DNA of 64,000 nucleotides from Burkholderiales bacterium (GCA_965279115.1 OZ257137.1:1078587-1142586); one strand, 5' to 3'; shown: positions 2,700-56,189, numbered from the stretch's first letter. Numbers and translations are program-made. The notes: generated by a model not told the origin, from the letters alone.

Positions 2700-2703
2700 G
2701 GGT

Positions 2704-6376: not shown

Positions 6377-6431
6377 GCTTCTTTCTCCTCGCGTCGTTCA
6401 CTGACGGCGCTTATCGTTACTGCGATCAACA

Positions 6432-6605: not shown

Positions 6606-6640
6606 GGGCGACGCCGTTCCTCGCGGCTTGCCCTCCCCGC

Positions 6641-7192
6641 TCAAGAGTTGCCCTTCCCGGCGATCTCGAAGAACGTGTACGACAGCGTGATCGTCGTCAC
6701 GTCTTTCGTCATGTCGGGATCGATCACGAACACCACCGGAAATTGCCTGGACTCTCCAGCCGCGAGGGTCTGCTGCTTGAAGCAGAAACACTCGAGCTTC
6801 TTGAAATATTGTGACGCCGCCTTCGGCGCATAACTCGGGATCGCCTGGCCGGTCATGGGGCGATCGGTGAGATTGGTCACCTCGTACATCACCTGCACCA
6901 GTTCGCCCGGATGCACCTGCGTGCTGCCCGACACCGGCCGGAAACGCCACGGCATATTGTTCGAATTGGCGTCGAACTCGATGGTGACCTTGCGGGTCAG
7001 GTCGACCTGCGTGTTGGTTGGGCGCGCATCTGCCTTGACCAGCTGGTTGATCCCGGTGATCTCGCAAATCGTCTTGTAGAACGGCACCAGCGCGTAGCCA
7101 AATCCGCCCATGAGCACCACCACCACGAGAAGCTTCTTGAGCGTTTCGCGGTTGCCGGCGGTTTGTGCGGTTTGTTCGGATTGTGCCGTCAT
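6641..7192 (-). CDS. ctaG: Cytochrome c oxidase assembly protein CtaG/Cox11
   Basis: 183 aa. N-terminal TM plus a soluble domain carrying the CFCF copper-binding motif (LECFCFKQQ). Confidence 0.88.
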   Translation of the reverse strand: MTAQSEQTAQTAGNRETLKKLLVVVVLMGGFGYALVPFYKTICEITGINQLVKADARPTNTQVDLTRKVTIEFDANSNNMPWRFRPVSGSTQVHPGELVQVMYEVTNLTDRPMTGQAIPSYAPKAASQYFKKLECFCFKQQTLAAGESRQFPVVFVIDPDMTKDVTTITLSYTFFEIAGKGNS

Positions 7193-7199
7193 GTTTGCC

Positions 7200-7319
7200 T
7201 CAGCCGAACAGTACCCGCTTGCCGATCACGCCCAGGAAGAAGACAAACGCGATCGACACCAGCACCACGGCTGTGCGGCCATTGCTGCGGGGTGCGGTCG
7301 GTCCGGTCTGGTTCGACAT
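7200..7319 (-). CDS. 39-aa single-TM protein (cytochrome oxidase small assembly protein-like)
   Basis: Hand-translated: MSNQTGPTAPRSNGRTAVVLVSIAFVFFLGVIGKRVLFG. It is below the ORF-track length cutoff and fills the ctaD-ctaG gap exactly. No strong SD is visible. Confidence 0.55.
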   Translation of the reverse strand: MSNQTGPTAPRSNGRTAVVLVSIAFVFFLGVIGKRVLFG

Positions 7320-7361
7320 GGTTCCGAGGAAGTGCGCGCGGCGATGGATTCCGAAATCCCC

Positions 7362-8957
7362 TTACTTTACCTGCGGAGCGGTCTCGAAAGTGTGATATGG
7401 CGCCGGCGACGGAACGCTCCATTCCAGGCCCTCCGCACCCTCCCAGGGATTGGCCGCGGCCTTGGTGCCGCCCTTGATCGCCTTGATGACCACCGCCAGC
7501 AGAATGAGCTGCGAGAAACCGAAACCAAACGCGCCGATCGAGGCGATCATGTTGAAGTCCGCGAACTGGGTTGCGTAGTCCGGGATGCGACGCGGCATGC
7601 CGGCCAGGCCGAGGAAGTGCATCGGGAAGAAGGTGATGTTGAAGAAGATCATCGAGCACCAGAAATGCAGCTTGGCCAAGCCTTCGTCGTACATGTAGCC
7701 GGTCCACTTGGGCAGCCAGAAATACACGCCTGAGAACATCGCAAACAGCGAACCGGCCACCAGCACATAGTGGAAATGCGCCACGACGTAGTAAGTGTCC
7801 TGAAGCTGGATATCGACCGGAGTGACCGCCAGGATAAGGCCGGTGAAGCCGCCCATGGTGAACACGAAGATGAAACCGACCGCAAACAGCATCGGGGTCT
7901 CGAAGGTCATCGAACCACGCCACATGGTGGCGATCCAGTTGAACACCTTCACGCCCGTGGGCACGGCGATCAGCATGGTCGCGTACATGAAAAACAGCTG
8001 GCCGGCCGCCGGCATACCGGTGGTGAACATGTGGTGCGCCCAGACGATGAACGAGAGGATCGCGATCGACGAGGTGGCGTACACCATCGAGGCATAGCCG
8101 AACAGCTGCTTGCGGGCGAAGGCGGGGACCACATGGCTGATGATGCCGAAGGCAGGCAGGATCATGATGTAGACCTCGGGATGGCCGAAGAACCAGAAGA
8201 TGTGCTGGTACATGACCGGGTCGCCGCCGCCGGCGGCGTTGAAGAACGAGGTGCCGAAGTGGCGATCGGTGAGCACCATGGTGATGGCGCCGGCCAGAAC
8301 GGGCATGACGGCGATCAGCAGGTAAGCGGTGATGAGCCACGTCCAGCAGAACATCGGCATCTTCATCAGCGTCATGCCGGGCGCGCGCATGTTGAGGATG
8401 GTGGTGATGATGTTGATGGAGCCCATGATCGACGATGCGCCCATGATGTGCATGGCGAAGATGCCCAGGTCCATGCCAAGGCCCATCTGCGTCGAGAGGG
8501 GCGCATAGAGCGTCCAGCCGGCGGCGGTGGCGCCACCAGGCACGAAGAAGGAAATCACCAGCAGGGCGGCGGCCGGAACCAGCAGCCAGAACGACCAGTT
8601 GTTCATGCGCGCGAACGCCATGTCGGGCGCACCGATCTGCAGCGGGATCATCCAGTTGGCGAAACCCACGAAGGCCGGCATGATCGCGCCGAACACCATG
8701 ATCAGGCCGTGCATGGTGGTGAACTGGTTGAACATCTCCGGGCGCCAGTATTGCAGGCCGGGCTGGAAAAGCTCGGCGCGGATGCACAGCGCAAGCACGC
8801 CGCCGACCATCAGCATGGCGAAGGAGAACCACAGGTACAGGGTGCCGATATCCTTGTGATTGGTGGTCATGACCCAGCGCATCAGGCCGGACGGCGGGCC
8901 GTGGTGGTGGTCTTCGTGATCGTGGGCGTGGCCGTGATTGTCGAGAACTGCGCTCAT
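7362..8957 (-). CDS. ctaD: Cytochrome c oxidase subunit I
   Basis: 531 aa, 12-TM. Canonical heme-copper motifs are present ([20 protein letters not shown]). Confidence 0.97.
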
Positions 8958-9006
8958 GATTGCCTCTGCGGGTATGACGTGATCGTTGACGTGTCTGGTG
9001 TGCGGC

Positions 9007-10218
9007 TTATTGCGGCTTGGCGGCGAGCTGGCTCAGCTTGGCCGCATCCCAGGCCTTGGCGGCCTTGATGTCGGCAGGCATCGCGATGTCATCGGACTTG
9101 TTGCCCCAGCTGTTGCGTGTGTAGGCGATGACCGCCGCCAGTTCGACATCCGACAGGCTCTTGAACGAAGCCATCGCGGTGCCCTGGCGGCCGTTGATGA
9201 GCACGGCGACCTGGTTGTCCTTCGGGCCCTGCACCACCTTGGCGCCATCGAGCGGCGGGAAGGCGGGCGGGGTCCCCTTGCCGGTGGCCTGGTGGCAGGC
9301 CACGCAGGCGGCGGCATAGACCTTTTCACCACGCGCGACCAGCTCGGCCTTGGTCCACTGCTTGTTCGGGTCGTCCATCTTGGCGGCCATCAACTTTTTC
9401 TGCTCCTCGACCCACTTGGAGTAATCGGCCTCCGACTTGACGTTGACGACAATGGGCATGAAACCGTGCTCCTTGCCGCACAGTTCGGCGCACTGGCCAC
9501 GGTATATGCCGACCTTGTCGGCCTTGAACCAGGTGTCGCGGATGAAGCCGGGGATCGCGTCCTGCTTGACGCCGAAGGCGGGAATCATCCAGGCGTGGAT
9601 CACATCCTGCGCGGTGGTCAGGATGCGGACCTTCTTGCCCACCGGGACAACAACCTCGTTGTCCACCTCAAGCATGTAATTGATGCCCTTTTCGGCCTTG
9701 CCCTCTATCTGGTCGACCGGCGTGGACAGGCTCGAATAGAAGCTGATGCCTTCGCCTTCGCCCTTGACGTAGTCATAGCCCCACTTCCACTGGTAGCCGG
9801 TGGCCTTGATGGTGAGGTCGGCGTTGGAAGTGTCCTTCATCGCCAGTACCGTCTTGGTCGCCAGGGCGGCCATGACGATGACGATGATCATCGGAACGAC
9901 CGTCCAGGCGATTTCCACGGTGGTGCTCTCATGGAAGGTTGCCGGCTTGTGCCCCTTGGATTTGCGATGCGCGTACACGGAGTAGAACATCACGCCGAAA
10001 ACCGCGACGAAAATCACCGCGCAGATCGCGAGCATCACGATGTGGAGGTCGTAGATCTGGCTGGCGATCGTCGTTACCGGTGGCGCCAGATTGAGCTGGT
10101 TTACCGCCGGCCCGCCAGGCATGTCGCCCGTGGCTGCGCTGGCGATGCCGGTTGCGAGCGCCAGCGAAACGCCGGCGGCATACAAGGTCTTGCTGCAAGA
10201 GGTTGCTACGCCCATCAT
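9007..10218 (-). CDS. ctaC: Cytochrome c oxidase subunit II with fused C-terminal cytochrome c domain
   Basis: 403 aa. CuA site HAWMIP...[13 protein letters not shown]-terminal CVACH heme c motif. Confidence 0.95.
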
Positions 10219-10298
10219 GTCCTCAGTCGCGATTGATTATGTGTGTTCATGGTCCGGAGGTGCCTGGCCTGCTGCCACAGCGCTCCCGGTTGTCAAGT

Positions 10299-10790
10299 TC
10301 AAGCGTTGGACGCCCCACGCAGGGCCGCCCCGAATTCGTTTGCAAAGGCCAGGCGTCGCTCGAATCCCAGATGCCGCCCCAGTTCAACCTGTTTTCCGGA
10401 CTGCGAAAGCAGTACTTTCACCCCCGCAGGCTGGCGCAACACCGAAAGCCGCGCCCAGCGGGGGTTGAATTCCTGCACACTTCGCGTGCTGCCGTTGCCA
10501 TGCTCGATGGTCACCATCCGGGGGCCCACGGAAATCCGCTCAAATTCACCCGCGCGCCTGCCACAGGCGAAAAAGGCGTAACCCACCACCAGCATTTCCA
10601 GGCCGGCAAAGGGAAGAATCAACCACGGTCCATACGAGGCAAAAGCTACGCCGAACCCGAAGGAAAGAGCAACCAGACTCGCGAAAACCGCGATCAGTCC
10701 GCGCGGTCCGATCGAACAATTCCGCCGCGACAGGAATTCGACATTTCCATGCTGCGACGCAAAAGTTGAGTCCAACTCTTGATGTTTCAT
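10299..10790 (-). CDS. Integral membrane protein (DUF2244-like) heading the cox operon
   Basis: 163 aa. Two adjacent TM helices followed by a soluble domain. Lies immediately upstream of ctaC. Family assignment is from memory of cox-linked DUF2244 genes. Confidence 0.6.
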   Translation of the reverse strand: MKHQELDSTFASQHGNVEFLSRRNCSIGPRGLIAVFASLVALSFGFGVAFASYGPWLILPFAGLEMLVVGYAFFACGRRAGEFERISVGPRMVTIEHGNGSTRSVQEFNPRWARLSVLRQPAGVKVLLSQSGKQVELGRHLGFERRLAFANEFGAALRGASNA

Positions 10791-10852
10791 TTATATGAAC
10801 ACTCACACTTCAGGCGGCGAGTTGTCTTGTTTGTGCACCCCGTAATCTGAAA

Positions 10853-10885
10853 ATTATAGCAGTCTTTCAAATCACGACTTTCAAA
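10853..10885 (-). promoter_or_regulatory. Candidate cox operon promoter: extended -10 (TGCTATAAT) preceded by two TTTGAAAG direct repeats
   Basis: The minus strand reads TTTGAAAGtcgtgaTTTGAAAGacTGCTATAAT. The -10 lies at 10853-10858 and the repeats at 10864-10871 and 10878-10885, about 63 nt upstream of the 10790 start. Confidence 0.35.
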
Positions 10886-11097
10886 CGCCACGCCGGGGCC
10901 GGCGTTGCTCCGAAATGCGTCAAGACCACAATACGCGCGTGGGCAAAGCATGCGGGATCAAGCCCAAAACGTGACGGATATCACGCCCCATTGCAGGGCG
11001 CGATCTGATCATGCCGCGGCGTTCCCGCTGCACCCGATACGCCGGCCGGCGGCCCGCGATCGCGCTGCCGGCGTCCGGGGCACCCTTCCGGCGTCCG

Positions 11098-12390
11098 TCA
11101 GCCTTCGACGAACTGCTCGGCCCAGGACAGGGCCTCCAGATGCGCCCGGTTTATCTGTTCGTTGGAGAGCTGAAGGGAGCGCGACAGTTGCTCCACTTCG
11201 TCACCATCGGCGACCTCGCATGCCTCCACCAATTGCAGAAACGGCGCGAGTACGCCGCTGCGCTCGATCAAGGCATCGTTGATATCCGAAGGCAGGACGA
11301 TGTTTTCCAGCGCCTGCTCCATCGGCACACCCAGCATCACGTCGAGCAGCGAAAACACGCCGGCGAGGAACGCGTTGTCGCAATCTTCGACTGGCAGACA
11401 TTGAGCCGCCAGCAATTCCATGAAGCGGGCACGCGTGACGGCGAAACTCGCCACCACCGGCGGCGCAGTGCCACTCTTGATCGAGGTCAGCAGCAGCGCG
11501 GCCCAGCGGAACAGCTTCTTGAGACCCAGGATCATCACCGCATGGCGGAAAGAGGTGACCTCGCAGCCAAGGCCGAAGCCGGCGGAATTGATGTAGCGAA
11601 GCAATTTGAAGGACAACGTCGGATCGCGCTTGAGAAGCTCCTCGATGGTGCCGGGGTCGGCCTCCTTGCGGACCAGGTTGATCAACTGGATCACCGTGGA
11701 GTAGGCGGGGTTCGCGAGCTTGGCGGTGACCGCGGTCGGTCGTTCGAAGTAGTAGCCCTGGAAAAATTTCACGCCCAGCTTCATCAGCAGTTCGAATTCG
11801 GCCGCCGATTCGACCTTTTCGGCGATCACCTGGGCATGCTGATGGTTGCCGGCGATGCGCACGGCGGCCGGAAGGGTTTCCGGCTTGAGCCGACGCATGT
11901 CAAGCTTGATGTAGGACGCGTGGGGTACCCATGAAATATAGGGGCGCGTGAGGACATAGGCGCCAAAGGCGAGCCGGAAACCGCGCATGCGCAGTTGCTC
12001 CAGTATCTCGGCGGTAACCGCGATCAGGTCGGCGGCGTTGTCCTCGATGGCCGGAATCTCCAGCACGATCCGCTCGGGATCGACGATTTCGAGGTGGACG
12101 CCGGTCAGCGTCTCGGTAGTGCAGTTGACGAAAGCGAGTTTCTTGCCAAACAAGGCTTCGCTGCCGATGTTGGAAAGCGCATTGAACATCAGGGCGCTGT
12201 CGGTCGCGGCGGTCATCACCTCGGTGACGGCATCCGCCCCGGGATGCCGGCGATGCAACAGTTCATAGCCGATCACGCCGCGCTTGGCATCGACAATCGG
12301 TTGCCGCGCGATGACCGCGATGTCACCACCAGTCGGAATGAGGGCTGCAGGCCCCATCGGGTCGGGTACTGCGTGGGCGGCCAGGGACAT
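11098..12390 (-). CDS. EAL-HDOD domain signalling protein (EAL appears degenerate)
   Basis: EAL-like N-terminal half (QPIVD...GYELLHR, KLD, EKVE, QGYYFERP) followed by an HDOD-like C-terminal half. Start chosen at MSLAAH (12390) because the 12549 start overlaps bioC. Confidence 0.8.
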   Translation of the reverse strand: MSLAAHAVPDPMGPAALIPTGGDIAVIARQPIVDAKRGVIGYELLHRRHPGADAVTEVMTAATDSALMFNALSNIGSEALFGKKLAFVNCTTETLTGVHLEIVDPERIVLEIPAIEDNAADLIAVTAEILEQLRMRGFRLAFGAYVLTRPYISWVPHASYIKLDMRRLKPETLPAAVRIAGNHQHAQVIAEKVESAAEFELLMKLGVKFFQGYYFERPTAVTAKLANPAYSTVIQLINLVRKEADPGTIEELLKRDPTLSFKLLRYINSAGFGLGCEVTSFRHAVMILGLKKLFRWAALLLTSIKSGTAPPVVASFAVTRARFMELLAAQCLPVEDCDNAFLAGVFSLLDVMLGVPMEQALENIVLPSDINDALIERSGVLAPFLQLVEACEVADGDEVEQLSRSLQLSNEQINRAHLEALSWAEQFVEG

Positions 12391-44927: not shown

Positions 44928-46541
44928 TCAATTGCGGGCGAGAAGCTGGCGCACCAGTTCACCCTTGATGATCTTGCGGGTCGGCGTAAGGGGCATCGCC
45001 GTCACGATTTCCAGACGCTCCGGCCACTTGACCTTGCCGACGTCTTCGGACGCCAGAAAGTCCCGCATCTCCTCGAGCGAGAATGCGTGTCCCGGGCGCG
45101 TGACCACAAAGCAGCAGGCCTTCTCGCCTAGCACCGCGTCCGGGATTGGCGCGACAGCCACCTCGGCCACCGCGGGATGTTTGAGCAACATCGCCTCGAC
45201 ATCCAGCGGATTGAACTTGACGCCGCCACGGTTGATGATTTCCTTGACGCGCCCGGTAAGTCGCACGTTGCCTGCGTTGTCGATGACAGCAAGGTCGCCG
45301 GTGCGGAACCAGCCGGCCTCGGCGAAGGCATCCCGCGTGGCTTGCGGGTTTTCGAGGTAGCCGGCAAAGAGCGACGGGCCGCGCATCTGCAGTTCGCCTT
45401 CAATGCCCGGGGAAAGTTCATTCCCGCCGGCATCGACCACCCGCAATTCGGTACCGGGCGAGGCGCGCCCGGTGGATTCCAGGCGTACCGGTTCAGGGTC
45501 GCCGGGCCGGGTGAAGGCGCCAGCCTGCAGCTCGGTCATGCCCCACAACTGCATCACTTTGCCGCCGCCCAGTCGTGGTTCCAGCGCCCGGCCAAGCGCG
45601 GGTGGCACCGCGCTGCCGGAGATCTGCACGAACTTCAGACAGGTCATGTCCAGGCCATCGAACAGCCCGCCGTTGAGGCAGGCGGCGATATGCGCCGGCG
45701 CGGTGAAGGCTGCAGTAGGGCGCATGATGCGGATCGCATCGGCCAGGCCCGGCGGCGAGAACGCCGGCAGGAGCGCAATGGTCGCGCCCACGGCCAGCGC
45801 CATGTTCACCGTGAAAAGACCATACAAGTGGGTAAACGGCGCGGCCGACAGCATCACATCGTCCGGACCCAGTGCCAGTTCGGCCGCTGACAGGCGCGCA
45901 TTGGCGAGAAAGTCCTGATAGGCGTGCGGCACCCCCTTGGGTGACGACGTGGTTCCCGAGGTGTAGAGCAGCAGGAACGGATCCTCGCCCGAGAGCCTCG
46001 GCAGACCGGTCGCTGCCTTGGTGTCAGGCAATTCACGCCAGTCGCGTGCTTGTCGCGGCACCTGGTCGCCTACTGCAATGACTTCGCGCAATGCCGGCAG
46101 TCCGCTACGCAAGCCCAGAAAAGTGTCTGCGGCGGCATAGTCCTTGGTCGCATCCAGGCACACCACGGCAACCGCGCCGCTGTGCCGCAGCAGGCCTTCG
46201 AGGTCAGCGGCGCGATATGGCATGTGCAGGGTTTGCATCACCGCACCGAGCGATGCAATCGCGAGATAGGCCAGCACGAACTGTGGCGTGTTGGGCAACT
46301 GCACTGCGACCACGTCACCGCGCCGGATGCCCAACGCCGACAAACCCTGCGCCACAGCCAGCGCTTCATCCCGCAGCCGCCGGTATGACCACACGGCATC
46401 GCCAAGCCGCAAGGCCGCATGATCCGGGCGCTCGCGCGCATTTCGCTCCAGCCAGTCGGACAAGGTTTCGTCGTTCCAGTAACCGTTGGCGCGATAGGCG
46501 GCACCGCGCACCGGGTCGAAGGTGATGGAAAGGCGGGTCAT
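44928..46541 (-). CDS. Aryl-acid-type AMP ligase (EntE/DhbE-like aryl-CoA ligase)
   Basis: N-terminal YRANGYWNDETLSDWL pattern, as in 2,3-dihydroxybenzoate/salicylate-AMP ligases. LLYTSGTTSSPKG, WGMTE, TGDLA. 537 aa. Confidence 0.8.
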   Translation of the reverse strand: MTRLSITFDPVRGAAYRANGYWNDETLSDWLERNARERPDHAALRLGDAVWSYRRLRDEALAVAQGLSALGIRRGDVVAVQLPNTPQFVLAYLAIASLGAVMQTLHMPYRAADLEGLLRHSGAVAVVCLDATKDYAAADTFLGLRSGLPALREVIAVGDQVPRQARDWRELPDTKAATGLPRLSGEDPFLLLYTSGTTSSPKGVPHAYQDFLANARLSAAELALGPDDVMLSAAPFTHLYGLFTVNMALAVGATIALLPAFSPPGLADAIRIMRPTAAFTAPAHIAACLNGGLFDGLDMTCLKFVQISGSAVPPALGRALEPRLGGGKVMQLWGMTELQAGAFTRPGDPEPVRLESTGRASPGTELRVVDAGGNELSPGIEGELQMRGPSLFAGYLENPQATRDAFAEAGWFRTGDLAVIDNAGNVRLTGRVKEIINRGGVKFNPLDVEAMLLKHPAVAEVAVAPIPDAVLGEKACCFVVTRPGHAFSLEEMRDFLASEDVGKVKWPERLEIVTAMPLTPTRKIIKGELVRQLLARN

Positions 46542-46562
46542 GGTCTTGCCTGGCGCCAGGTC

Positions 46563-47258
46563 TCAGCCACGCGCCGCGCGGGCGGGCTCCGCGCGCGCAA
46601 AGCCCTGATACAGGTCGAGCATGCGCTCGAACCAGGCGCCAACCGCGTCATCGGCTTCCAGAACAGGTTCGGGATATACGATGCGCGCCCATTGCAAGGG
46701 GCTCATCATGATGTGGTCGGCATAACCGGGGGTCGCACCGCAGACAAACGGCTGCGCGCGCAAGCTTGCACGCAAGGGGTCGAGCGCGCGGCGAAACCCC
46801 TTGGTCGAACCCTCGCGGCCGGCATGCAGTTCCTCAAGCGTTTTGCCGAAGCCCTTTTCAAACCCCGCGCGGACGTGGGCAGCGTCGCCGGCGTCAAGGA
46901 GTTGCGTGACCGAGAGCGCACACACCGGCGCCAGCGCCGCCATCAACTGGCGGTCGGCCACCGCATTGACGAAACGGCCCAATGCCAGTCCGGCAGGTCC
47001 GCCAAACAGGCTTGGCGTGGTCGGATAGGTGGTTTCAAGATACTCGGCGATCTTCCACGAATCGCTGACCACCGTTTCGCCGTCGCGGATGATCGGCACC
47101 TTGCCCTGGCCGGAAAAGGAGATCGCCGCCTTGTCGGAAATGCGCACCGGCTGCGTCTCGAACGCGAGCCCCTTGTGCTTAAGGGCCATGCGCGTGCGCC
47201 AGGAAAACGAACTGTAGCGCGCGCCACTGTCGGCCCCGAGCTCATACAGAACGATCAT
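46563..47258 (-). CDS. Glutathione S-transferase, zeta-like signature (possible maleylpyruvate/maleylacetoacetate-type isomerase)
   Basis: N-terminal thioredoxin-like domain with SSFSWRTRMAL, which resembles the zeta-class SSCxWRVRIAL motif. GKVP...SDS glutathione-site pattern. Confidence 0.7.
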   Translation of the reverse strand: MIVLYELGADSGARYSSFSWRTRMALKHKGLAFETQPVRISDKAAISFSGQGKVPIIRDGETVVSDSWKIAEYLETTYPTTPSLFGGPAGLALGRFVNAVADRQLMAALAPVCALSVTQLLDAGDAAHVRAGFEKGFGKTLEELHAGREGSTKGFRRALDPLRASLRAQPFVCGATPGYADHIMMSPLQWARIVYPEPVLEADDAVGAWFERMLDLYQGFARAEPARAARG

Positions 47259-47355
47259 GGCCTTATCTCCGGGTTGTCTGATAAATACTTTAGGTCTAAA
47301 CTATTCAGATGTCAATCATAATGCGCAAACCCGCTGCGAGAAGGACGAGACCATC

Positions 47356-47769
47356 ATGAAAATCCTGCAACCACCCGGTTGGGCCACACCACGCGGTTAC
47401 GCCAACGGCATAGCCGCGCGCGGCACGCTCGTCATGATCGGCGGCCAGGTCGGCTGGGACCCGGTCAAGAGCGGTGCCGGCGGCAAGGGCGTATGGCCGG
47501 CGCTGGACTTCGCCGGACAAACCCGCCAGGCATTGCAGAACATCGTCGCCATCCTGGCCGAGGCCGGCGGCAAGCCGGAGCATCTGGTGCGCCTGACCTG
47601 GTATGTGCTCGACCGTGACGAATACGTGGCCGCATGGCCCGCCGTGGGCGCGGCCTACAAGGAAATCATCGGGCGGCACTTCCCTGCAATGTCGGCCTTT
47701 GGCGTCACTTCGCTGGTGGAGCCGGAAGCAAGACTGGAAATCGAAGCTACCGCAGTAGTTCCCGATTGA
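47356..47769 (+). CDS. RidA/YjgF family enamine-imine deaminase-like protein
   Basis: 137 aa. PRGYANG...GQVG...Q.RQAL.N...L...G...V.L..YV...PA....V..L....RLEIEA pattern. Confidence 0.85.
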   Translation: MKILQPPGWATPRGYANGIAARGTLVMIGGQVGWDPVKSGAGGKGVWPALDFAGQTRQALQNIVAILAEAGGKPEHLVRLTWYVLDRDEYVAAWPAVGAAYKEIIGRHFPAMSAFGVTSLVEPEARLEIEATAVVPD

Positions 47770-47786
47770 ACCTGATACATCAAACC

Positions 47787-48773
47787 ATGCACATTCCCCA
47801 CAGCCTTCGCGCCCTGCTCCTGGCAGGCGTCACCGCCCTTGCCAGCGTGGCGCAACCGGCATTCGCGCAGGGCTATCCCGCCAAGCCAGTCCGCATCGTC
47901 GTGCCCTACCCGGCCGGCGGCGGCATCGACATCATGTCGCGGCAGATCGCGCAGCGGCTTGCGCAGAAGTTCAACCAATCGGTGGTGGTTGAGAACAAGC
48001 CGGGCGCCGGCACCCTCGTCGCGGCCGAAACGGTCGCACGCGCGGCACCGGATGGATACACCCTGCTGGTGACCACCGATGCCACCATGACCATCAACCC
48101 GCATCTGTACGGCAAGCTGCCCTACGACCCGGTCAAGGACTTCGTGCCGGTCACGCAATTGGTGCTCCTGAACCAGTTGCTGGTGGCCAACGCCAACCTG
48201 CCGGCAAGCAACCTCAAGGAATTGCTGGCCTATGCCAAGGCCAATCCGGGCAAACTGAACTACGCTTCATACGGTGTGGGCAGCCAGCCGCACCTGGCCA
48301 TGGAAATCCTCAAGTCCCAGGCCGGGGTGGACATCGTCCACGTACCGTACAAGGGCATCCCGCAGGCCGTGCCTGCGGCGATCGCGGGCGAGGTCCAGCT
48401 CACCTTTTCGGGCGCGGCTTCAACCCAGGCACACATCAAGGCAGGCAAGCTGAAGGCCATCGCCATCGGCGGGACGAGGCGCCTTTCGATCATGCCGGAT
48501 GTCCCGACCTTCGCCGAATCCGGCTTTCCCGACGTGCCGGCCAACGCATGGTTCGGCCTGTTCACCCCCACCGGCACCCCGCGCGAGATCGTCATGACGC
48601 TGCACGGCGAAGTCACGCGCATGCTCAAGGAGCCGGATTACCTGCAGAAGGAAATCGTGGCCAAGGGTTACGAGCTGGTTGCCGGCACGCCCGAGGATTT
48701 CGCCAGCTTCCTCACGGCCGACAGCACACGCAACGCCCGCGCCGTGAAAATCTCCGGTGCCCGCGCCGACTAG
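47787..48773 (+). CDS. Tripartite tricarboxylate transporter substrate-binding protein (Bug/TctC family)
   Basis: Signal peptide followed by the hallmark YPAKPVRIVVPYPAGGGIDIMSR. Confidence 0.9.
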   Translation: MHIPHSLRALLLAGVTALASVAQPAFAQGYPAKPVRIVVPYPAGGGIDIMSRQIAQRLAQKFNQSVVVENKPGAGTLVAAETVARAAPDGYTLLVTTDATMTINPHLYGKLPYDPVKDFVPVTQLVLLNQLLVANANLPASNLKELLAYAKANPGKLNYASYGVGSQPHLAMEILKSQAGVDIVHVPYKGIPQAVPAAIAGEVQLTFSGAASTQAHIKAGKLKAIAIGGTRRLSIMPDVPTFAESGFPDVPANAWFGLFTPTGTPREIVMTLHGEVTRMLKEPDYLQKEIVAKGYELVAGTPEDFASFLTADSTRNARAVKISGARAD

Positions 48774-48795: not shown

Positions 48796-50613
48796 ATGCC
48801 GGATAAAGCGACCGACAGACGCCCCTTTGCCGCACTCTGGTTCGCGGTTCTGGCCATGGCCGTCGGCATTCCTTGGGCGCTGAATGCCTTCGAACTGGTC
48901 GAGGCCAAGCTCCTTGACCTCGAGTTTCAGACAATCCGCAAGATCGGCCCCCGTGAGATCGCCCGCGACGTAGTAGTGGTCGGCATCGACGTAGAGGACC
49001 TGCGCCGTTTCAACGACCCGAAGGATTTCTGGCACCCCCACTACGGCCGCTTCCTCTCGGCGGTCGCGGATGCCAAGCCCGCCGTGGTGGGAATGGATAT
49101 CGTCTTTCCGGAGCGTTCCTACCAGCGACTGGTGCCTGGAATAGACCAGAGCTTGATGAAGGGGCTGCTTGCATTGCGCGCATCTGCGCCCCTGGTGATC
49201 GCCCGCACAGTTGACGATTTCAACGCCTTTCGGCAGATTTTCCCGCCCTACCTCGCCGTTGCCGGCGCAGACGCTGTCGGCAGCGCACTGGTGTGCCGGG
49301 ACGGGGACGAGGTGATTCGCCGCTTCGACGAATACCTGTGTGACAGCGCGCGCCGCGACCCAATTCCGAGCCTGGCCGGGCTGATGGCGGGCCATCTGGG
49401 CGTCAGGGAATCATGGCGGGGCATCATCGACTACGGCATGGGTCCGCCGATCAGCTATATCCCGTTTCGCGACGTTATCTACTGGTCCGACCGTGGCGAT
49501 CCACGACTGCAGACGGCGCTCGCCGGTAAGCCCGTGCTGCTCGGCTTTATCCTGCCCTTCGAGGACCGGAAAACCGTTCCGGTCGACCTGGCTGCCCTCG
49601 AACCGGGCAATCATTTGGTGCCCGGCGTTCTGGTGCACGCACAGATCCTGCGCAACATGCTCAACGGCGGCCTGGTACGGCAGCCACCGGCGCTGCTCAT
49701 TGCACTGCTCATCCTGGCAGGCGCCGGTTTCTGGCTGCTTCCATCCGCCCCCGGATCGCGCCTAGCCTTGCTCGGATTCCTGATCGCATTGCCGGCTGGC
49801 GCCCTACTGGCGCTCAAGTCCCAGCACACCTTCGTTCCGGTCCTCGCACCCATGCTGGCCGCCTTGCTGGGCGCAGGCGCGCGCTATGTCCATGCAGCCA
49901 CCGCGCAGGCACGGGAGCGCGCCTTGTTGCGAAGTTCTTTCGGAGGCTATGTCAGCCCGCAGGTGATGAGTGCGATTCTTGCTGGCTCGGTCCATCCCGG
50001 GCTCGAAGGCGAGCGTCGCAATGTGGCCGTGCTGTTTTCCGACATCCGCGACTTCACACGCCGCAGTGAGGGCATGACACCGGAAAGCCTGATCGACATG
50101 CTGAACCAGTACTTCACCGAGATGACCGACGTCGTGCATGCGAACGACGGCACGGTGGACAAGTTCATCGGCGACGGCATGATGGCCTTTTTCGGCGCAC
50201 CACAGCAACTCGACAATCCTTCGCAGAATGCCGTTGACGCCGCGCTGCAGATGCTTGAACGGCTGGAAACACTTAACCGGAAGCTCGTCGAGCAAGGCTT
50301 CGAGCCGCTGCGGATCGGCATCGGCATCCATGTGGGCGAGGTCATCATCGGGCACGTCGGTTCGGCAAGCCGACACGAGTACACCGCCATTGGCGACGCC
50401 GTCAACACCGCATCGCGTGTGGAAGGCCTGACCAAGGATGCGGGATGCCCGCTCCTGGTCACCCGGCCGGTTTTCGCTGCGCTTGCCAGGCGCACGGGAT
50501 TTGCCGACCTTGGCAGCAAGGAAATTCGCGGGCGCTCGGCGATACAGATATACGGCCATTCTGGCAATATCACTGCCAATTCCGCGGTCGGCGCAGCACC
50601 GCCAGGGAGATAA
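48796..50613 (+). CDS. CHASE2 extracytoplasmic sensor fused to a class III adenylate/guanylate cyclase
   Basis: One TM, a roughly 280-aa periplasmic region with CHASE2-like motifs (VVVGIDVEDL, FWHPHYGRF, VVGMDIVFPE), three TM segments, then a cyclase domain (VAVLFSDIRDFT, KFIGDGMMAFFG, IGIHVGEVIIGHVG, YTAIGDAVNTASR). The Lys...Thr specificity pair suggests ATP. Confidence 0.88.
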   Translation: MPDKATDRRPFAALWFAVLAMAVGIPWALNAFELVEAKLLDLEFQTIRKIGPREIARDVVVVGIDVEDLRRFNDPKDFWHPHYGRFLSAVADAKPAVVGMDIVFPERSYQRLVPGIDQSLMKGLLALRASAPLVIARTVDDFNAFRQIFPPYLAVAGADAVGSALVCRDGDEVIRRFDEYLCDSARRDPIPSLAGLMAGHLGVRESWRGIIDYGMGPPISYIPFRDVIYWSDRGDPRLQTALAGKPVLLGFILPFEDRKTVPVDLAALEPGNHLVPGVLVHAQILRNMLNGGLVRQPPALLIALLILAGAGFWLLPSAPGSRLALLGFLIALPAGALLALKSQHTFVPVLAPMLAALLGAGARYVHAATAQARERALLRSSFGGYVSPQVMSAILAGSVHPGLEGERRNVAVLFSDIRDFTRRSEGMTPESLIDMLNQYFTEMTDVVHANDGTVDKFIGDGMMAFFGAPQQLDNPSQNAVDAALQMLERLETLNRKLVEQGFEPLRIGIGIHVGEVIIGHVGSASRHEYTAIGDAVNTASRVEGLTKDAGCPLLVTRPVFAALARRTGFADLGSKEIRGRSAIQIYGHSGNITANSAVGAAPPGR

Positions 50614-50618
50614 TCCGC

Positions 50619-52238
50619 ATGATGGACAAGCGTATTTCGAAGGCCCCCGGCCGGCAGTTGCCGCAGCGCCGCCAATTCCTGAAGGTCGGCTTAGGCTGCG
50701 CCAGCATATTCGCCTCTGGACCGTTGGCACAGGTTTGGGCACAAACCCCGCAAGGAGAGCAACTCCTCAAGTTGCCCAAGGTGGCGCTGGTGATCGGCAA
50801 CAGCCGCTACCCGCAGTCGCCGCTGAAAAATCCGGTCAACGACGCACGCGCCTTTGGCGAGGCGCTGCTCAAGCTGGGCTTTGATGTCAGCGTGAAGCTC
50901 GACGCCGACCGTGCTGCCATGAATGCAGCCATCGCCGCATACGTGGACAAGCTTACCAAGCAAAAGTGCGTTGGCCTCTTCTACTACGCCGGCCATGGCA
51001 TGCAACTGGCCTGGAAGAACTACCTGTTGCCGGTGGACGCCAGCGTCGCAGCCGTAAAGGACGTGCAGTCACAGGGCGTCGAACTCAACGCCTTGATTGC
51101 CGGCCTGACACGCGCATCCAACCCGCTCAACCTGATTATCCTCGACGCCTGCCGCGACAACCCCTTTGGGAGTGTTGCGCAACTGGAGCAAAAGGGCTTG
51201 AGCCAGATGGATGCCCCGCTCGGCACTCTGCTGGCCTACGCCACCTCGCCAGGGAATACCGCGAGCGACGGCGAGGGCGCCAACGGGCTTTACACCGAGA
51301 ACCTGCTAAAGGAAATCCAGGTCAAGGAAGCCAAGGTAGAGGACGTATTCAAGCGCGTGCGACTGAGCGTCCGGCGCGCTTCCAGGGGGTTGCAAATCCC
51401 CTGGGAAAGCACTTCGCTGGAAGATGACTTCTACTTCCTGCCGCCCGGCATACTTGCCAAGCCGGGTGATGACGAACGCGCCCGGCAGTTCGCCGAGGAA
51501 CTCAAGTTGTGGGATTCGATCCAGGAGGCGGCTTCGCCAGCCCCGTTCGAGTCCTACCTCAGGAGGTTCCCCAGCGGCCAATTTTCCGAACTCGCGCAAC
51601 TACAACTCGAACGCCTGCTGGCCAAGGAAGGGGAAAAACCGATCCTGATCGCGCCGGCGATCGGCAACCCCTACACCGCTGGTACTTCGCGCGCGGACAC
51701 CCGGTTTCTGATCGGCGACACCTGGACCTGGCGAGTATTCGACCGCCATACCGGCGCCGAGAAGGGCACGCGAACGCATACAGTCACCGAAATTACCGAC
51801 AACGAGGTGCGCTTCAACAAGGGGAGGATCATCTCCGACCTGCTCGGCAACATCAAGCAATCCGGTGACGGCCGCCGCTACACCGGCAATCAGTTCCAGC
51901 CGCTCGAATTCGCCGTGGGAAAACAATGGACCACGCGCTTCCAGGTGGTCAACCCGGCAGGCAACAACGTCGAATCCGAATACACCTTCCGCATCACGAC
52001 AAAAGAAAAGGTCAACGTTCCTGCCGGCACCTTCGATTGCTTCCGCATCGAAGGCAAGGGAATCAGCCGCGCCCGATTCGGTTCCGGCAGCACAACGCTG
52101 ATGAACAACTTCTGGATGGCACCGGATGCTTGCCGGCGCGTCATAAAGCAGGAAATCAACCGCACGTTCTACGGGCCACGCGGCCTGAACCAGCTTGAAG
52201 ACGACCGGACTGAATTGGTGTCGTTCAAGCAAGGCTAG
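50619..52238 (+). CDS. Tat-signal caspase-fold (peptidase C14) protein, paralog 1, with a C-terminal beta-rich domain of unknown function
   Basis: The start lies 5 nt after the cyclase stop, with a GGGAGA SD. QRRQFLKVG twin-arginine motif and VWA-Q cleavage site. Catalytic His in YYAGHG and Cys in ILDACRDNPF. Confidence 0.85.
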   Translation: MMDKRISKAPGRQLPQRRQFLKVGLGCASIFASGPLAQVWAQTPQGEQLLKLPKVALVIGNSRYPQSPLKNPVNDARAFGEALLKLGFDVSVKLDADRAAMNAAIAAYVDKLTKQKCVGLFYYAGHGMQLAWKNYLLPVDASVAAVKDVQSQGVELNALIAGLTRASNPLNLIILDACRDNPFGSVAQLEQKGLSQMDAPLGTLLAYATSPGNTASDGEGANGLYTENLLKEIQVKEAKVEDVFKRVRLSVRRASRGLQIPWESTSLEDDFYFLPPGILAKPGDDERARQFAEELKLWDSIQEAASPAPFESYLRRFPSGQFSELAQLQLERLLAKEGEKPILIAPAIGNPYTAGTSRADTRFLIGDTWTWRVFDRHTGAEKGTRTHTVTEITDNEVRFNKGRIISDLLGNIKQSGDGRRYTGNQFQPLEFAVGKQWTTRFQVVNPAGNNVESEYTFRITTKEKVNVPAGTFDCFRIEGKGISRARFGSGSTTLMNNFWMAPDACRRVIKQEINRTFYGPRGLNQLEDDRTELVSFKQG

Positions 52239-52303
52239 CAGCAGGCGTTCGGCAATGGCAATGAAGCATTCGCAAGCATGGCCAAGCGGCTGTCACATTG
52301 CGC

Positions 52304-52378
52304 CCGGCGATACAGGTATGCAACCATTCTGGCAGGGACACCACGAATTCCATGGCTGCCGCTACACCGCAAGGGTGA
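52304..52378 (+). pseudogene. Relic of the cyclase C-terminal tail carried along by the duplication
   Basis: Translates PAIQVCNHSGRDTTNSMAAATPQG*. This aligns with the cyclase C-terminus SAIQIYGHSGNITANSAVGAAPPGR*. No upstream cyclase domain is present. Confidence 0.55.
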
Positions 52379-52389
52379 TAATCTGAACC

Positions 52390-54009
52390 ATGGGCAAACG
52401 CTATTCGAAGGCACCGGACCGGCAGTTTCAACAGCGCCGGCAAATCATCAAGGTCGGCCTGGCCGGCGCGAGCGTATTTGCCTCCGGACCGTTGGCCCAT
52501 GTATGGGCGCAAACACCGCAAGGCGAACAGCTCCTCAAGCTGCCCAAGGTGGCGCTGGTGATCGGCAACAGCCGCTACCCGCAGTCGCCCCTGAGAAATC
52601 CGGTCAACGACGCGCGCGCGTTTGGCGAGTCATTGCTGAAGCTGGGCTTTGATGTCAACGTGAAGCTTGATGCCGACCGCGCCGCCATGAATGCCGCTAT
52701 CGCAGCCTATGTGGACAGGCTTGCCAGGCAAAAGTGCGTGGGGCTGTTCTACTACGCCGGGCACGGCATGCAGCTGGCCTGGAAGAACTACCTGTTGCCG
52801 GTGGATGCCAGCGTCGCCGCGGTAAAGGACGTGCAGACACAGGGCGTCGAACTAAACGCCCTGATCGCCGGCTTGACCCGCGCGTCCAACCCGCTCAACC
52901 TGGTCATACTCGACGCGTGCCGCGACAACCCCTTTGGCAGCGTTGCGCAGCTGGAGCAAAAGGGCTTGAGCCAGATGGATGCTCCGCTCGGCACCCTGCT
53001 TGCCTACGCCACCTCCCCTGGCAACACTGCCAGCGACGGGGAAGGCGCCAACGGGCTTTACACCGAGAACCTGCTAAAGGAAATCCAGGTCAAGGAAGCC
53101 AAGGTAGAGGACGTATTCAAGCGCGTGCGACTGAGCGTCCGGCGCGCTTCCAGGGGGTTGCAAATCCCCTGGGAAAGCACTTCGCTTGAAGATGACTTTT
53201 ACTTCCTGCCGCCAGGCATGATTGCCAAACCTGGCGATGACGAAAAGGCACGTCTGTTTGCCGAGGAACTCAAGATCTGGGAATCGATACAGGAGGCCGC
53301 GTCGTCTGCGCCCTTCGAGTCCTACCTCAGAAAGTTTCCCAGTGGCCAGTTCGCCGAGCTTGCGCAATTGCAACTTGAGCGCCTCTTGGCCAAGGAAGGA
53401 GAAAAGCCGATCCAGATCGCCCCCGCCAACGGCAACCCCTACACTGCGGGCAGCGCACGCGCGGATACAAGTTACGTGATTGGTGATTCCTGGACTTGGC
53501 GCGTATTCGATCGGGAAAGCGGTGCCGACAAGGGCCGCCGATCCAGAACCGTCACCGAAATCACCGAGCATGAGGTGCGCTACAACAAGGGACTCCCGGT
53601 CACGGATCTGCTTGGAAATCTGAAACGGACCGCCGACGGCCGGCGCTTCACGGGCGGGCAGTTCCTGCCGCTCGAATTCATGGTCGGCAAACAGTGGACG
53701 ACGCAATTCAGGTCATTCAACAGCAGCATGAACGTGGAATTCAATTCCGAGTACACCTTCCGCATCGTTGCCAGGGAAAAACTCACCGTCACGGCCGGCA
53801 CTTTTGATTGCTTTCGTGTCGAGGGAAAAGGGATAAGTCGCCCGATTCACGGATCGGGAAGCACCACGCTGCTATACAACTATTGGATGGATCCCGCGGT
53901 CTGCAGGGGCGTGATCAAGCAGGAAATAAACCGCACCTTCTTTGGTCGATTCGGCATGAATGTCATCGAAAATGATCGATACGAACTAATTTCCTACAGG
54001 CAAGGTTGA
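52390..54009 (+). CDS. Tat-signal caspase-fold (peptidase C14) protein, paralog 2
   Basis: QRRQIIKVG twin-arginine motif. The YYAGHG / ILDACRDNPF dyad context is the same as in paralog 1. The C-terminal domain is divergent. Confidence 0.85.
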   Translation: MGKRYSKAPDRQFQQRRQIIKVGLAGASVFASGPLAHVWAQTPQGEQLLKLPKVALVIGNSRYPQSPLRNPVNDARAFGESLLKLGFDVNVKLDADRAAMNAAIAAYVDRLARQKCVGLFYYAGHGMQLAWKNYLLPVDASVAAVKDVQTQGVELNALIAGLTRASNPLNLVILDACRDNPFGSVAQLEQKGLSQMDAPLGTLLAYATSPGNTASDGEGANGLYTENLLKEIQVKEAKVEDVFKRVRLSVRRASRGLQIPWESTSLEDDFYFLPPGMIAKPGDDEKARLFAEELKIWESIQEAASSAPFESYLRKFPSGQFAELAQLQLERLLAKEGEKPIQIAPANGNPYTAGSARADTSYVIGDSWTWRVFDRESGADKGRRSRTVTEITEHEVRYNKGLPVTDLLGNLKRTADGRRFTGGQFLPLEFMVGKQWTTQFRSFNSSMNVEFNSEYTFRIVAREKLTVTAGTFDCFRVEGKGISRPIHGSGSTTLLYNYWMDPAVCRGVIKQEINRTFFGRFGMNVIENDRYELISYRQG

Positions 54010-54048
54010 CCGGGCGGCGTTCCGGCAACCGGTACAGGAGTTCAAAAA

Positions 54049-54903
54049 ATTAGATTCCATGCACCCATCCTGATATGCGCGCTCGCCGCCCTGTCGCTTT
54101 CACCTGCCGCCGCGGGCGAACCGGTGGCGATGGCGACGGACGTCAAAGGCACTGTGACCCTCGTCGGCGACAAGCCCGTACCCATCGGCATGCTGCACTA
54201 CTTCGAAGCACCGACAACCGTTCGCCTTGCTCCCGGCGCAACGCTTGCAGTGACCTACTTCGCCAACCCGGTCCAGTACAGCTTCAAGGGACCGAGCGTG
54301 CTCACAATCGAGGCGATCGTGCCAAAGGCATCCGAGGGTGCCGCGCCTGAAATCCGGCGTGTCGGACCGGAACGATCCATCGACGGCGGCCTGACCAAGG
54401 ATCAATGGCGGCGACTGCAACAGGCGACCGTGGTGATGCGCTCGGCGCGCCTTGCTTTCGCGGTAATCTCGCCGAACCAGACTTCCATTCTGTCCCCGCG
54501 CGCGGAGCTGTCCTGGACACCCGCAGCGGGCGCAAGGAGCTATCGCCTCACGTTGAGTGACGATCAGGATAACCCTATTGCAACCTGGCCCAGTACCTCG
54601 ACGACAAGCACGATTCCCGAAACGGCGAGACTTGCAGCGGGAAAATCCTTTCGCTGGAAAGTTGAAGCCGTGGATGTAGCGCCGCCGCTGGTCGCAAGCG
54701 GTGTTTTTTCCACCGCGACAGCGGAAGTGGCAGAACGCATGACACGACAGCGTCCTGCCGACGGCGGGGATCTTGCCGCCAACGTTTTCTACGCAACGCT
54801 CCTCGATATCGAAGGGTTTGCCAGCGACGCCAAAGCAGAGTGGCGGCGCCTCGCACGCCAGTTTCCCGATGAGCAGGCGCTCCGGCGCCGCGCGGCGCCC
54901 TGA
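54049..54903 (+). CDS. Secreted protein (beta-sandwich/FN3-like middle region, helical C-terminus); proposed ATT start
   Basis: The track ORF starts at GTG 54124, but the frame is open from 54010 and encodes (I)RFHAPILICALAALSLSPAAA-GEP, a canonical Sec signal. AGGAG (54036-54040) lies 8 nt before ATT 54049. No ATG, GTG or TTG is available upstream in this frame. Confidence 0.6.
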   Translation: MRFHAPILICALAALSLSPAAAGEPVAMATDVKGTVTLVGDKPVPIGMLHYFEAPTTVRLAPGATLAVTYFANPVQYSFKGPSVLTIEAIVPKASEGAAPEIRRVGPERSIDGGLTKDQWRRLQQATVVMRSARLAFAVISPNQTSILSPRAELSWTPAAGARSYRLTLSDDQDNPIATWPSTSTTSTIPETARLAAGKSFRWKVEAVDVAPPLVASGVFSTATAEVAERMTRQRPADGGDLAANVFYATLLDIEGFASDAKAEWRRLARQFPDEQALRRRAAP

Positions 54904-54998: not shown

Positions 54999-56189
54999 AT
55001 GACCGCACACGCGCCCAAAGCCCAATTCACCTGGGAAGACCCGCTGCACCTCAACGAGCAGTTGACCGAAGACGAGCGCATGGTGCGCGAAGCGGCCTAC
55101 GACTACTGCCAGTCCAAGCTGCAGCCACGCATTCTTGAGGCATTTCGCCACGAGAAAGGTGACGCGTCGATCTTCCGCGAAATGGGCGAAATCGGCCTTC
55201 TGGGACCGACGATTCCCACCGAATACGGCGGCCCGGGCCTCAACTACGTGTGCTACGGCCTGATCGCACGCGAAGTCGAGCGTGTGGATTCCGGCTACCG
55301 CTCGATGATGAGCGTGCAGTCCTCACTGGTGATGGTGCCGATCTATGAATTCGGCTCCGAGGCGCAGCGCAGGAAATACCTGCCCAAGCTTGCCACCGGC
55401 GAATGGATCGGCTGCTTCGGCCTGACCGAGCCCAACCACGGTTCCGACCCGGCCTCCATGATCACCCGCGCCAGGACGGTGCCGGGCGGTTTCTCGGTCA
55501 CCGGCGCGAAGATGTGGATCTCCAACTCGCCGTTTGCCGACGTGTTTGTCGTGTGGGCCAAGAACGACGAGGGCCGCATCCGCGGCTACATCCTCGAAAA
55601 GGGCATGAAGGGTTTGTCGGCACCGAAGATCGAAGGCAAGTTCGGCCTGCGCGCCTCGATTACCGGCGAGATCGTCATGGATGACGTTTTCGTGCCGGCC
55701 GAGAACGAGCTGCCCAATGTGGAAGGCCTCAAGGGCCCGTTCACCTGCCTGAATTCGGCGCGCTACGGCATCGCCTGGGGTGCACTCGGCGCAGCCGAAG
55801 ACTGCTGGCACCGGGCGCGGCAATACGTGCTCGACCGCAAGCAGTTCGGTCGCCCCCTGGCCGCCAACCAGCTGATCCAGAAGAAACTCGCCGACATGCA
55901 GACCGAGATCACGCTTGGCCTGCAGGGCTGCCTGCGCCTGGGCCGCATGAAGGATGAAGGCACCGCCGCAGTGGAGATCACCTCCATCATGAAGCGCAAT
56001 TCCTGCGGCAAGTCGCTCGACATCGCCCGCGTGGCGCGCGACATGCTGGGCGGCAACGGCATCTCCGACGAATACGGCATCATCCGCCACATGGTCAACC
56101 TGGAAGTCGTGAACACCTATGAAGGCACGCACGACATCCACGCCCTGATCCTGGGGCGGGCGCAAACCGGCATCCAGGCGTTCCAGTAG
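54999..56189 (+). CDS. gcdH: Glutaryl-CoA dehydrogenase
   Basis: 396 aa. F.WEDPL.L...[19 protein letters not shown] and [14 protein letters not shown] are typical of GcdH. Confidence 0.9.

Follow-up and report, generated by a model that had tools for sequence, protein, structure and literature searches.

In the stretch of DNA analysed here (the window; 64,000 nucleotides from a Burkholderiales bacterium, GCA_965279115.1 OZ257137.1:1078587-1142586), four co-oriented genes encode a CHASE2 cyclase, two caspase paralogues (A and, downstream of it, B) and the product of orf284, the gene that follows B (coordinates in Table 1). A and B share much the same protease part and differ strongly in their C-terminal parts, and it is probable that this mosaic is the combined result of domain constraint, a recombinant block and a short recent conversion within a 1768-bp tandem duplication. 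According to this explanation, purifying selection would act less strongly on the C-terminal beta-barrel domain than on the protease domain throughout the family, and the 5' part of B (upstream relic, signal and caspase domain) would share a recent gene pool with A and the orthologues nearest to A. The rest of B from about codon 275, together with most of orf284, was most probably imported from a divergent allele by homologous recombination, one crossover falling within the conserved caspase domain and the other close to where orf284 ends, and an identical tract of 143 nucleotides (nt) would have been left by a short, recent conversion between the copies. The underlying process is a textbook one (duplication, partial recombinational replacement and a short conversion tract), and the family that hosts it is widespread, with more than 7,800 database proteins, and uncharacterised.

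The paralogues were compared with the loci L001, L082 and L083 and with the close orthologue proteins P0001 (single-copy), P0002 and P0004; five close loci were available, all of them from metagenomes or one genome. Conservation and domain matches were assessed in a set of 88 homologous proteins and column variability in 83 more distant ones. A and B were aligned globally as proteins and compared by pairwise codon-based Nei-Gojobori counts, breakpoints were placed by maximum chi-square on all sites, third positions and 4-fold sites, and the identical tract was tested by codon shuffling inside the caspase domain. Divergence from L001 at 4-fold sites was counted in conserved codons, and the domain trees were made by neighbour-joining with bootstrap.

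Divergence along the genes

The observed mosaic is confirmed and statistically solid. In amino acids (aa) 43-342, A and B have 17 amino-acid differences and 102 nt differences, with a proportion of synonymous differences (pS) of 0.38 and a nonsynonymous divergence (dN) of 0.029. In aa 343-539 there are 67 substitutions and a 1-codon indel (65.5% identity), pS is 0.67, which is saturated, and dN is 0.24. An earlier by-eye reading of the sequence alone (the sequence-only reading) had counted about 17 substitutions in some 300 N-terminal residues, and about 68 differences with roughly 65% identity in the last 197 or so, and the alignment returned practically the same figures. That reading had also taken the divergence to be non-uniform, and uniform divergence was rejected by maximum chi-square, which placed a break at codon 353 for all sites (P≤0.003), at codon 275 for third positions (0.241 versus 0.500, P≤0.003) and at about codon 280 for 4-fold sites (0.31 versus 0.54, P=0.016), with silent divergence unequal between the halves.

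The edge seen in the proteins and the edge seen at silent sites do not coincide. The sequence-only reading had described an abrupt transition near LAKEGEKPI (codons 334-342), which holds for the amino-acid change, but not for silent sites, where the boundary lies about 70 codons earlier. Between the two edges lies the linker (aa 276-342), with pS 0.62 and dN 0.078 between A and B, and at 4-fold sites the difference is 0.283 for the caspase domain, 0.48 for the linker and 0.55 for the C-terminal domain. The linker is old at silent sites and conserved as protein. Constraint accounts for the edge in the proteins, and history for the edge at silent sites, where the caspase domain ends. A paralogue mosaic recognised by eye can in this way mix constraint and recombination, with separate boundaries in the protein and at silent sites.

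Third positions were homogeneous in the control pairs A-L083 (P=0.15) and B-L083 (P=0.37), and the GC content at third positions (GC3) of A is 0.79 and 0.78, equal in both domains. Therefore neither base composition, which is ruled out as the cause of the heterogeneity in synonymous divergence (dS), nor a gene-wide mutational gradient accounts for the pattern. A twofold dS excess seen by Nei-Gojobori counts in the C-terminal domain of A itself against L001 was found to be a method artefact, the 4-fold sites giving 0.27 versus 0.20.

It is highly improbable that the two genes had one uniform history and that the C-terminal domain merely evolved faster, by relaxed or diversifying selection on a recognition surface. 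Constraint does differ between the domains, since the linker protein is conserved despite its silent divergence and since the C-terminal domain is less conserved family-wide, with 35-45% identity among distant homologues versus 60-70% in the caspase domain. When amino-acid divergence in the C-terminal domain is divided by that in the caspase domain, the family median is 1.8, and the value is about 2.7-2.8 for P0001 and P0004, but 9.5 for A and B, which is far above this baseline, and constraint therefore explains part of the contrast, not its size. The twofold difference at silent sites, the break at codon 275 with homogeneous controls and the incongruent domain trees described below speak against rate differences as the only cause, and the silent-site tests largely refute this reading.

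Selection on the C-terminal domain

The sequence-only reading had offered diversifying recognition modules as one cause of the pattern, and this was not borne out. C-terminal dN/dS is 0.14, and in the sliding-window analysis that had been suggested the highest 30-codon window reached 0.48 (Nei-Gojobori). The A/B replacements fall in columns that are variable in the family (p=5e-7, the 83 more distant homologues), and the core motifs GNPYTAG, DLLGN, DGRR, GKQW and AGTFDCFR-EGKG are kept in both proteins. Diversifying selection was thus not detected in the C-terminal domain of A and B by pairwise dN/dS, windows and family columns, which are crude tests. These data suggest that the barrel is under purifying selection, and B looks functional. 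We also considered a diversity-generating retroelement target and rejected it: the C-terminal substitution spectrum is not adenine-biased, and the divergence spans the linker, the barrel, the spacer and the next gene.

Tandem duplication and its junction

A and B are a tandem duplication of 1768 bp whose junction can be recognised. The first unit contains the last ~90 nt of the cyclase gene, gene A, the spacer and the first 22 nt of orf284, so that between 52299 and 52300 a relic of the 5' end of orf284 meets a relic of the 3' end of the cyclase gene. The orf284-start relic can be aligned with the orf284 starts of L001 and L083. Identity in the 73-nt region after A, which holds the ancestral spacer and this relic, is 75% to L001 and 62% to L083, and only 33-41% in the 5' region of the real orf284. 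Both L001 and L083 share synteny and flanking genes with the window and have one caspase gene each, and the same cyclase gene is upstream of the caspase gene in L001, L082 and L083. A scan of the operon for promoters and terminators gave no internal signal above shuffled expectation and no evidence of separate transcription of B.

In the list of open reading frames, A is extended upstream to an ATG at 50445 (597 aa; the extension, 50445-50618, overlaps the 3' end of the cyclase gene in another frame). Comparison with orthologues indicates that the real start of A is the ATG at 50619 or 50622, because P0001 begins with MMVKH and P0002 with MDKR.

A short gene conversion tract

The difference-free run of 143 nt reported in the sequence-only reading was reproduced at its exact length and place in both genes. 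It is the longest identical run between A and B, and codon shuffling within the caspase domain gave P≤1e-4 for it. L001, L082 and L083 differ from it at 8, 18 and 23 sites, respectively, and A and B have derived bases in common within it, for example at sites 690, 744 and 748. The tract is a genuine case of recent intragenomic gene conversion between A and B.

Outside the tract the caspase domains give another picture. The differences per site are 0.112 for A-B, 0.083 for B-L001 and 0.077 for A-L001, and since in this domain B is at least as near to L001 as to A, conversion homogenising the 5' two-thirds, as was proposed from the sequence, is an overstatement. What stood of that proposal is recombination as such, visible as incongruent domain trees, and conversion in the 143-nt tract. 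The boundary is at about codon 275, not 343, and conversion elsewhere is not demonstrable, the caspase domain of B being as near to L001 as to A.

The divergent block in the 3' half of B and in orf284

The divergence in the 3' half of B continues through the spacer into orf284, and a contiguous segment of ~1.6 kb (~53212-54798) appears to be much older or foreign in ancestry, because of its excess of 4-fold differences, its unalignable spacer, its low GC3 and the distance of its orf284 part from all relatives. The background 4-fold difference against L001 is 0.25 in the TctC gene, 0.18 in the catalytic domain of the cyclase, 0.26 in acdH, 0.20-0.27 in all domains of A and 0.23 in the caspase domain of B. 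In the block it is 0.48 for the linker of B, 0.57 for its C-terminal domain, and 0.59 and 0.44 for aa 1-125 and 126-250 of orf284, and it falls to 0.12 at the right edge (orf284 aa 251-284). The spacer after B has 33-41% identity with homologues, and GC3 is 0.66-0.69 in the block and 0.75-0.85 in its surroundings. The orf284 of the window is equally far from all sampled relatives (0.51-0.59), which differ among themselves by 0.39-0.49.

The trees and site patterns agree with these measures. In the trees of the signal and caspase parts, A, B, P0001 and P0002 group without P0004 (bootstrap 100% and 87%). In the tree of the C-terminal domain, A and P0001 group at 100%, the group of A, B, P0001 and P0002 is found at 2%, and B is basal to the group. 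Over the 3' part, A equals L001 and not B at 153 sites, and the other two triplet patterns occur at 38 and 33; in the caspase domain the patterns are star-like (17, 27 and 24).

These results bear on whether the two copies could have evolved in concert since an ancient duplication in place (dS>1.5), conversion having homogenised only the 5' part (upstream relic, signal and caspase domain) and the single-copy relatives having lost one copy. We regard this as quite unlikely, even though the tandem junction shows that the copies arose in place, one conversion tract can be demonstrated, adjacent paralogues at the L084 locus have homogenised caspase domains as well, and both domain trees place B in the same clade of five (bootstrap 86-100%). 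Under concerted evolution it is not explained why outside the tract the caspase domain of B is at least as near to L001 as to A, with a star-like triplet pattern, nor why orf284, which lies outside the repeat except for 22 nt, has diverged to 0.44-0.59 against 0.18-0.27. It is equally unexplained why the relic after A, and not the 5' region of the real orf284, resembles L001 and L083, and independent, precise losses would be needed in the lineages of L001 and L083, each leaving a C-terminal domain of the A type.

Several points weigh against the combination of constraint, block import and short conversion that we prefer. Two orders of events are conceivable: the 3' half may have been replaced after the duplication, or a divergent allele may have been inserted in tandem as a whole. 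In the caspase domain outside the tract, the A-B distance (0.112) is slightly larger than the A-L001 distance (0.077), so that B is not exactly a simple, recent duplicate of A. In the C-terminal tree, the bootstrap for B outside A, P0001, P0002 and P0004 is only 66%. Neither the protein database nor the contigs of JGI metagenomes contained a C-terminal domain like that of B, or an orf284 like that of the window, at more than ~72-78%. Finally, pairwise Nei-Gojobori and 4-fold-site counts are crude measures, and the synonymous sites of the block are near saturation, so that ages cannot be finely ordered.

Concerning relatives of the C-terminal half of B, a word-index protein search gave 18 matches, the best of them an A-like fragment at 72%, and a scan of JGI metagenomes gave none; the closest homologues of orf284 adjoin A-like, not B-like, barrels. 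As no donor was found, the case for a foreign origin is drawn from divergence, composition and incongruence.

Table 1. Features of the caspase operon in the window (positions counted from the first nucleotide of the window; aa, amino acids of the respective protein)
Feature	Position	Strand	Basis or remark
First operon gene, CHASE2 sensor / class III adenylate-guanylate cyclase	48796-50613	+	Pfam CHASE2 4.9e-24, Guanylate_cyc 9.4e-27
Tandem-duplication unit 1, period 1768 bp	50532-52299	+	DNA alignments, sequence reading
Caspase paralogue A, 539 aa	50619-52238	+	Pfam Peptidase_C14, homologue comparison
A, predicted signal, Tat-type	aa 1-42	+	QRRQFLK
A, caspase domain	aa 43-275, 50745-51443	+	His126/Cys178
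A, 143-nt identical tract	51276-51418	+	A=B at all 143 sites
A, helical linker	aa 276-342, 51444-51644	+	homologue comparison, AF2 model
A, DUF3108-like beta-barrel	aa 343-539, 51645-52235	+	weak DUF3108_like match
orf284-start relic at the duplication junction, ATGGCCAAGCGGCTGTCACATT	52278-52299	+	alignable with orf284 starts of L001 and L083; ATG at 52278
Non-coding relic of the cyclase 3' end, upstream region of B	52300-52389	+	73% identical to 50532-50621
Caspase paralogue B, 539 aa (NCBI protein P0003)	52390-54009	+	apparent chimera, resident-type 5' part and deeply diverged 3' part
B, caspase domain	52513-53211	+	alignment to A
B, partner copy of the 143-nt tract	53044-53186	+	A=B at all 143 sites
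B, linker	53212-53412	+	alignment to A
B, DUF3108-like domain	53413-54006	+	alignment to A
Contiguous block of probable older or foreign ancestry (linker and C-terminal domain of B, spacer, orf284 codons 1-250)	~53212-54798	+	4-fold divergence, GC3, spacer
orf284, predicted secreted partner	54049-54903	+	Sec-type signal, two Ig/FN3-like beta-sandwiches, TPR-like helical tail

Recurrence in the family

A conserved protease scaffold with variable C-terminal modules, which the sequence-only reading had suggested for A and B, recurs family-wide in other arrays. At L084 (a JGI metagenome contig), five caspase and DUF3108-like paralogues form one array (1739-10747) directly after a barnase-like ribonuclease gene and a barstar gene. 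Between the fourth and fifth of them (g4-g5), caspase-domain identity is 94.6% with a pS of 0.36, and barrel identity is 45% with a pS of 0.69; between the second and third (g2-g3), the identities are 91.9% in the caspase domain and 46% in the C-terminal domain, with caspase pS again lower than C-terminal pS. L085, from a Burkholderiales metagenome-assembled genome (GCA_016790635.1), has at 4293-11712 a CHASE2 cyclase, an orf284 homologue, a 230-aa gene on the opposite strand and two tandem caspase paralogues. This MALT1-like family of predicted exported proteases thus repeatedly forms arrays in which near-identical protease domains are combined with long-diverged barrels.

Mosaics are found between orthologues as well. 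A and P0002 (L082 2612-4228) are 96% identical in the caspase domain and 73% in the barrel, and P0004 is closer to A in the barrel (77%) and more distant in the caspase domain (91%) than P0002 is. Such mosaic orthologues point to recombination between lineages, not between paralogues alone. At 4-fold sites, the CHASE2 segment of the cyclase gene (49096-49845, aa 101-350) differs by 0.52 from L001 and by 0.33 from L082, and aa 1-100 together with the catalytic domain by 0.18-0.21 from L001 and 0.42-0.49 from L082. From this the CHASE2 sensor domain appears to have been exchanged separately. The locus and the family are a patchwork, in which the catalytic modules follow the genome and the periplasm-facing modules carry deep alleles.

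This patchwork raises the question of whether selection maintains the variants, that is, whether there are long-lived allele classes of the CHASE2 domain, barrel and orf284 under balancing or frequency-dependent selection, recombined at domain borders, of which A and B would be two classes in one genome. This seems somewhat unlikely to us, although it would agree with the CHASE2 segment showing the reverse of its flanks, with the mosaic of A and P0002, with the equal distance of the window's orf284 from all relatives and with the same pattern in the arrays of other organisms. The five close loci are no population sample, and no signal of positive selection was found. Moreover, the idea of allele classes overlaps with the explanation by constraint, block import and short conversion, and adds a selective reason for the same recombination history.

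The part between protease and barrel varies also in length. In P0036, P0044 and P0057, either the linker has grown to ~200 aa, made up of charged repeats rich in Ala, Arg and Glu, or the barrel has an insertion of ~80 Gly-rich aa. At L085 the linker of one paralogue is expanded to 195 aa, and genes for HipA/HipB-like and Imm1 proteins are nearby. The comparison suggests that the length of the protease-barrel linker is adjustable.

Predicted proteins and their function

A and B are predicted to be C14 proteases of the MALT1/orthocaspase-like type. Both match PF00656 (Peptidase_C14) above the gathering score (E 3.1e-38 for A and 1.9e-38 for B), and A has 92% identity with P0001, its single-copy orthologue. 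His126 (YAGHG) and Cys178 (DACRD) are present in both proteins, are invariant in the 88 homologues and align with YAGHG and DMCRK of MALT1. The best PDB match of the family is MALT1, with E 2.7e-20 for the family profile and, for the structure model, a Foldseek E of 1e-13 (template modelling score 0.77 to 3v4o). In addition, the conserved residues Asp75 and Asp176 align with Asp365 and Asp462 in the S1 pocket of MALT1, and this hints at cleavage after basic residues.

The AlphaFold2 (AF2) model of A has a predicted local distance difference test score (pLDDT) of 86, and in it the C-terminal domain is all-beta, with long antiparallel strands. The DUF3108_like model gave 21 bits for A (E 3.3e-4) and 13.8 bits for B, with a cut-off of 27, and PF21347 was matched by 73 of the 88 homologues at E≤0.01 (best 1.7e-8). 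The DUF3108 family is a YmcC-fold barrel (PMC4364669), and the family profile matched PDB 4fvs with E 0.0028. At the N-terminus, A has a putative signal of the twin-arginine (Tat) type, with QRRQFLK followed by VGLGCASIFASGPLA and the putative cleavage site VWA|Q, and B has QRRQIIK in the same place; R17 and R18 are conserved in at least 90% of the 88 homologues. No Tat-signal model was found in the NCBIfam search of A and B at E≤0.1.

The product of orf284 is predicted to be a secreted protein with two immunoglobulin (Ig)- or fibronectin type III (FN3)-like beta-sandwiches and a helical tail resembling tetratricopeptide repeats (TPR). Its AF2 model (pLDDT 84) has matches to FN3-like folds, some of its homologues weakly match Ig_Rha78A_N, TPR and DUF928, and L001 and L083 have orthologues of 284 aa. 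We also considered orf284 as a FecR-domain protein, which neither Pfam nor the fold search supported. In the region 54036-54130, orf284 has no canonical start codon ahead of its signal peptide. The in-frame ATT at 54049 is the probable start: it lies 8 nt after AGGAG, gives 284 aa and matches the relic ATG in position (52278+1771). In the public annotation the protein (P0137, 257 aa) starts at an internal ATG at 54130 and is thus without the signal peptide.

Genes for a CHASE2 cyclase, an orf284 protein and a caspase also occur as a triad in several distant genomes (L010, L029, L048, L049, L064, L066, L081 and L085). In the mechanism that we favour, the proteases would act in the periplasm on or together with orf284 and the CHASE2 sensor, and would thereby set the synthesis of cyclic nucleotides. 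The barrel could serve as a module for recognition of partners or substrates, in which case A and B would be two specificities on one protease chassis. In our literature search we found no study of the combination of caspase, CHASE2 and DUF3108 or of this protease subfamily. We know of no ligand of CHASE2 sensors, and the barrel co-varies with the predicted secreted protein encoded next to it and, independently of this, with the CHASE2 domain, which gives a hint that CHASE2 may read out periplasmic proteolysis. On a wider and doubtful view, which we consider unlikely, CHASE2 cyclase, caspase-barrel protein and orf284 would form an undescribed periplasmic proteolytic signalling module, of which matched CHASE2, barrel and orf284 classes are exchanged between lineages as cassettes at domain borders and stacked in arrays of 2-5 genes, the protease chassis staying constant. 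On this view A and B with the divergent orf284 would represent a second set of specificities that had been captured, and not a duplicate in drift.

Comparison with known systems

Mosaics formed by partial conversion or recombination are known in tandem bacterial paralogues, for example in the concerted evolution of tufA and tufB. As in that type of evolution, A and B are two direct-repeat copies with an over-long identical tract that has shared derived states and with a clear silent-site breakpoint. Unlike in the tufA/tufB type, most of the 5' similarity of A and B is at least as old as the divergence from a related organism, and the diverged part reaches the next gene. Therefore import or replacement of a block, and not homogenisation, would be the main cause.

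In the CdiA-CT/CdiI and Rhs-CT/immunity systems, a conserved N-terminal body is combined with a variable C-terminus and a cognate downstream gene, which are swapped by recombination in the conserved part. There are several similarities to A and B, namely the conserved 5' part, a divergent 3' part inherited together with the downstream gene, a breakpoint where the domains meet, a relic of the former downstream gene left out of place and arrays of paralogues with different C-termini. However, the C-termini of A and B are both DUF3108-like, with shared conserved motifs and purifying selection, and no demarcation motif was seen, and the downstream orf284 is a predicted secreted Ig-like/TPR protein conserved across the family, not an immunity protein. 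Pfam and NCBIfam searches found no toxin or immunity families (the PADLOC library was not searched). A polymorphic toxin cassette of the contact-dependent inhibition or Rhs kind was rejected, as both C-termini belong to one DUF3108-like family and there was no toxin or immunity match in Pfam or NCBIfam.

Compared with MALT1 and the orthocaspases, A and B have the same protease fold and sequence, and the motifs YAGHG and LDxCR align. In contrast to MALT1, they have a predicted twin-arginine signal and a predicted DUF3108-like barrel, are without death, Ig or CARD-type adaptor domains, and are in an operon with a CHASE2 cyclase. For CHASE2 itself, a histidine kinase of Burkholderia is paired with a LysM-FecR protein (PMC5192318), and cyanobacterial CHASE2 genes have DUF928 neighbours (PMC5587647). 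The operon resembles these pairs in that the gene of a CHASE2 transmembrane sensor adjoins that of a predicted secreted beta-rich protein, and a few orf284 homologues are weakly DUF928. It is different in that the output is a class III cyclase and not a kinase, the partner is not FecR/LysM by Pfam, and a predicted periplasmic caspase is added.

Genomic context

The flanking genes are syntenic with L083 and L001, and the operon is therefore in a stable chromosomal setting of the kind usual in Burkholderiales, and not in a mobile element. Upstream (44928-48773) there are genes for an acyl-CoA synthetase-like protein, a glutathione S-transferase, RidA and a binding protein of the TctC/Bug family, and downstream (54999-56189) there is an acyl-CoA dehydrogenase gene (acdH).

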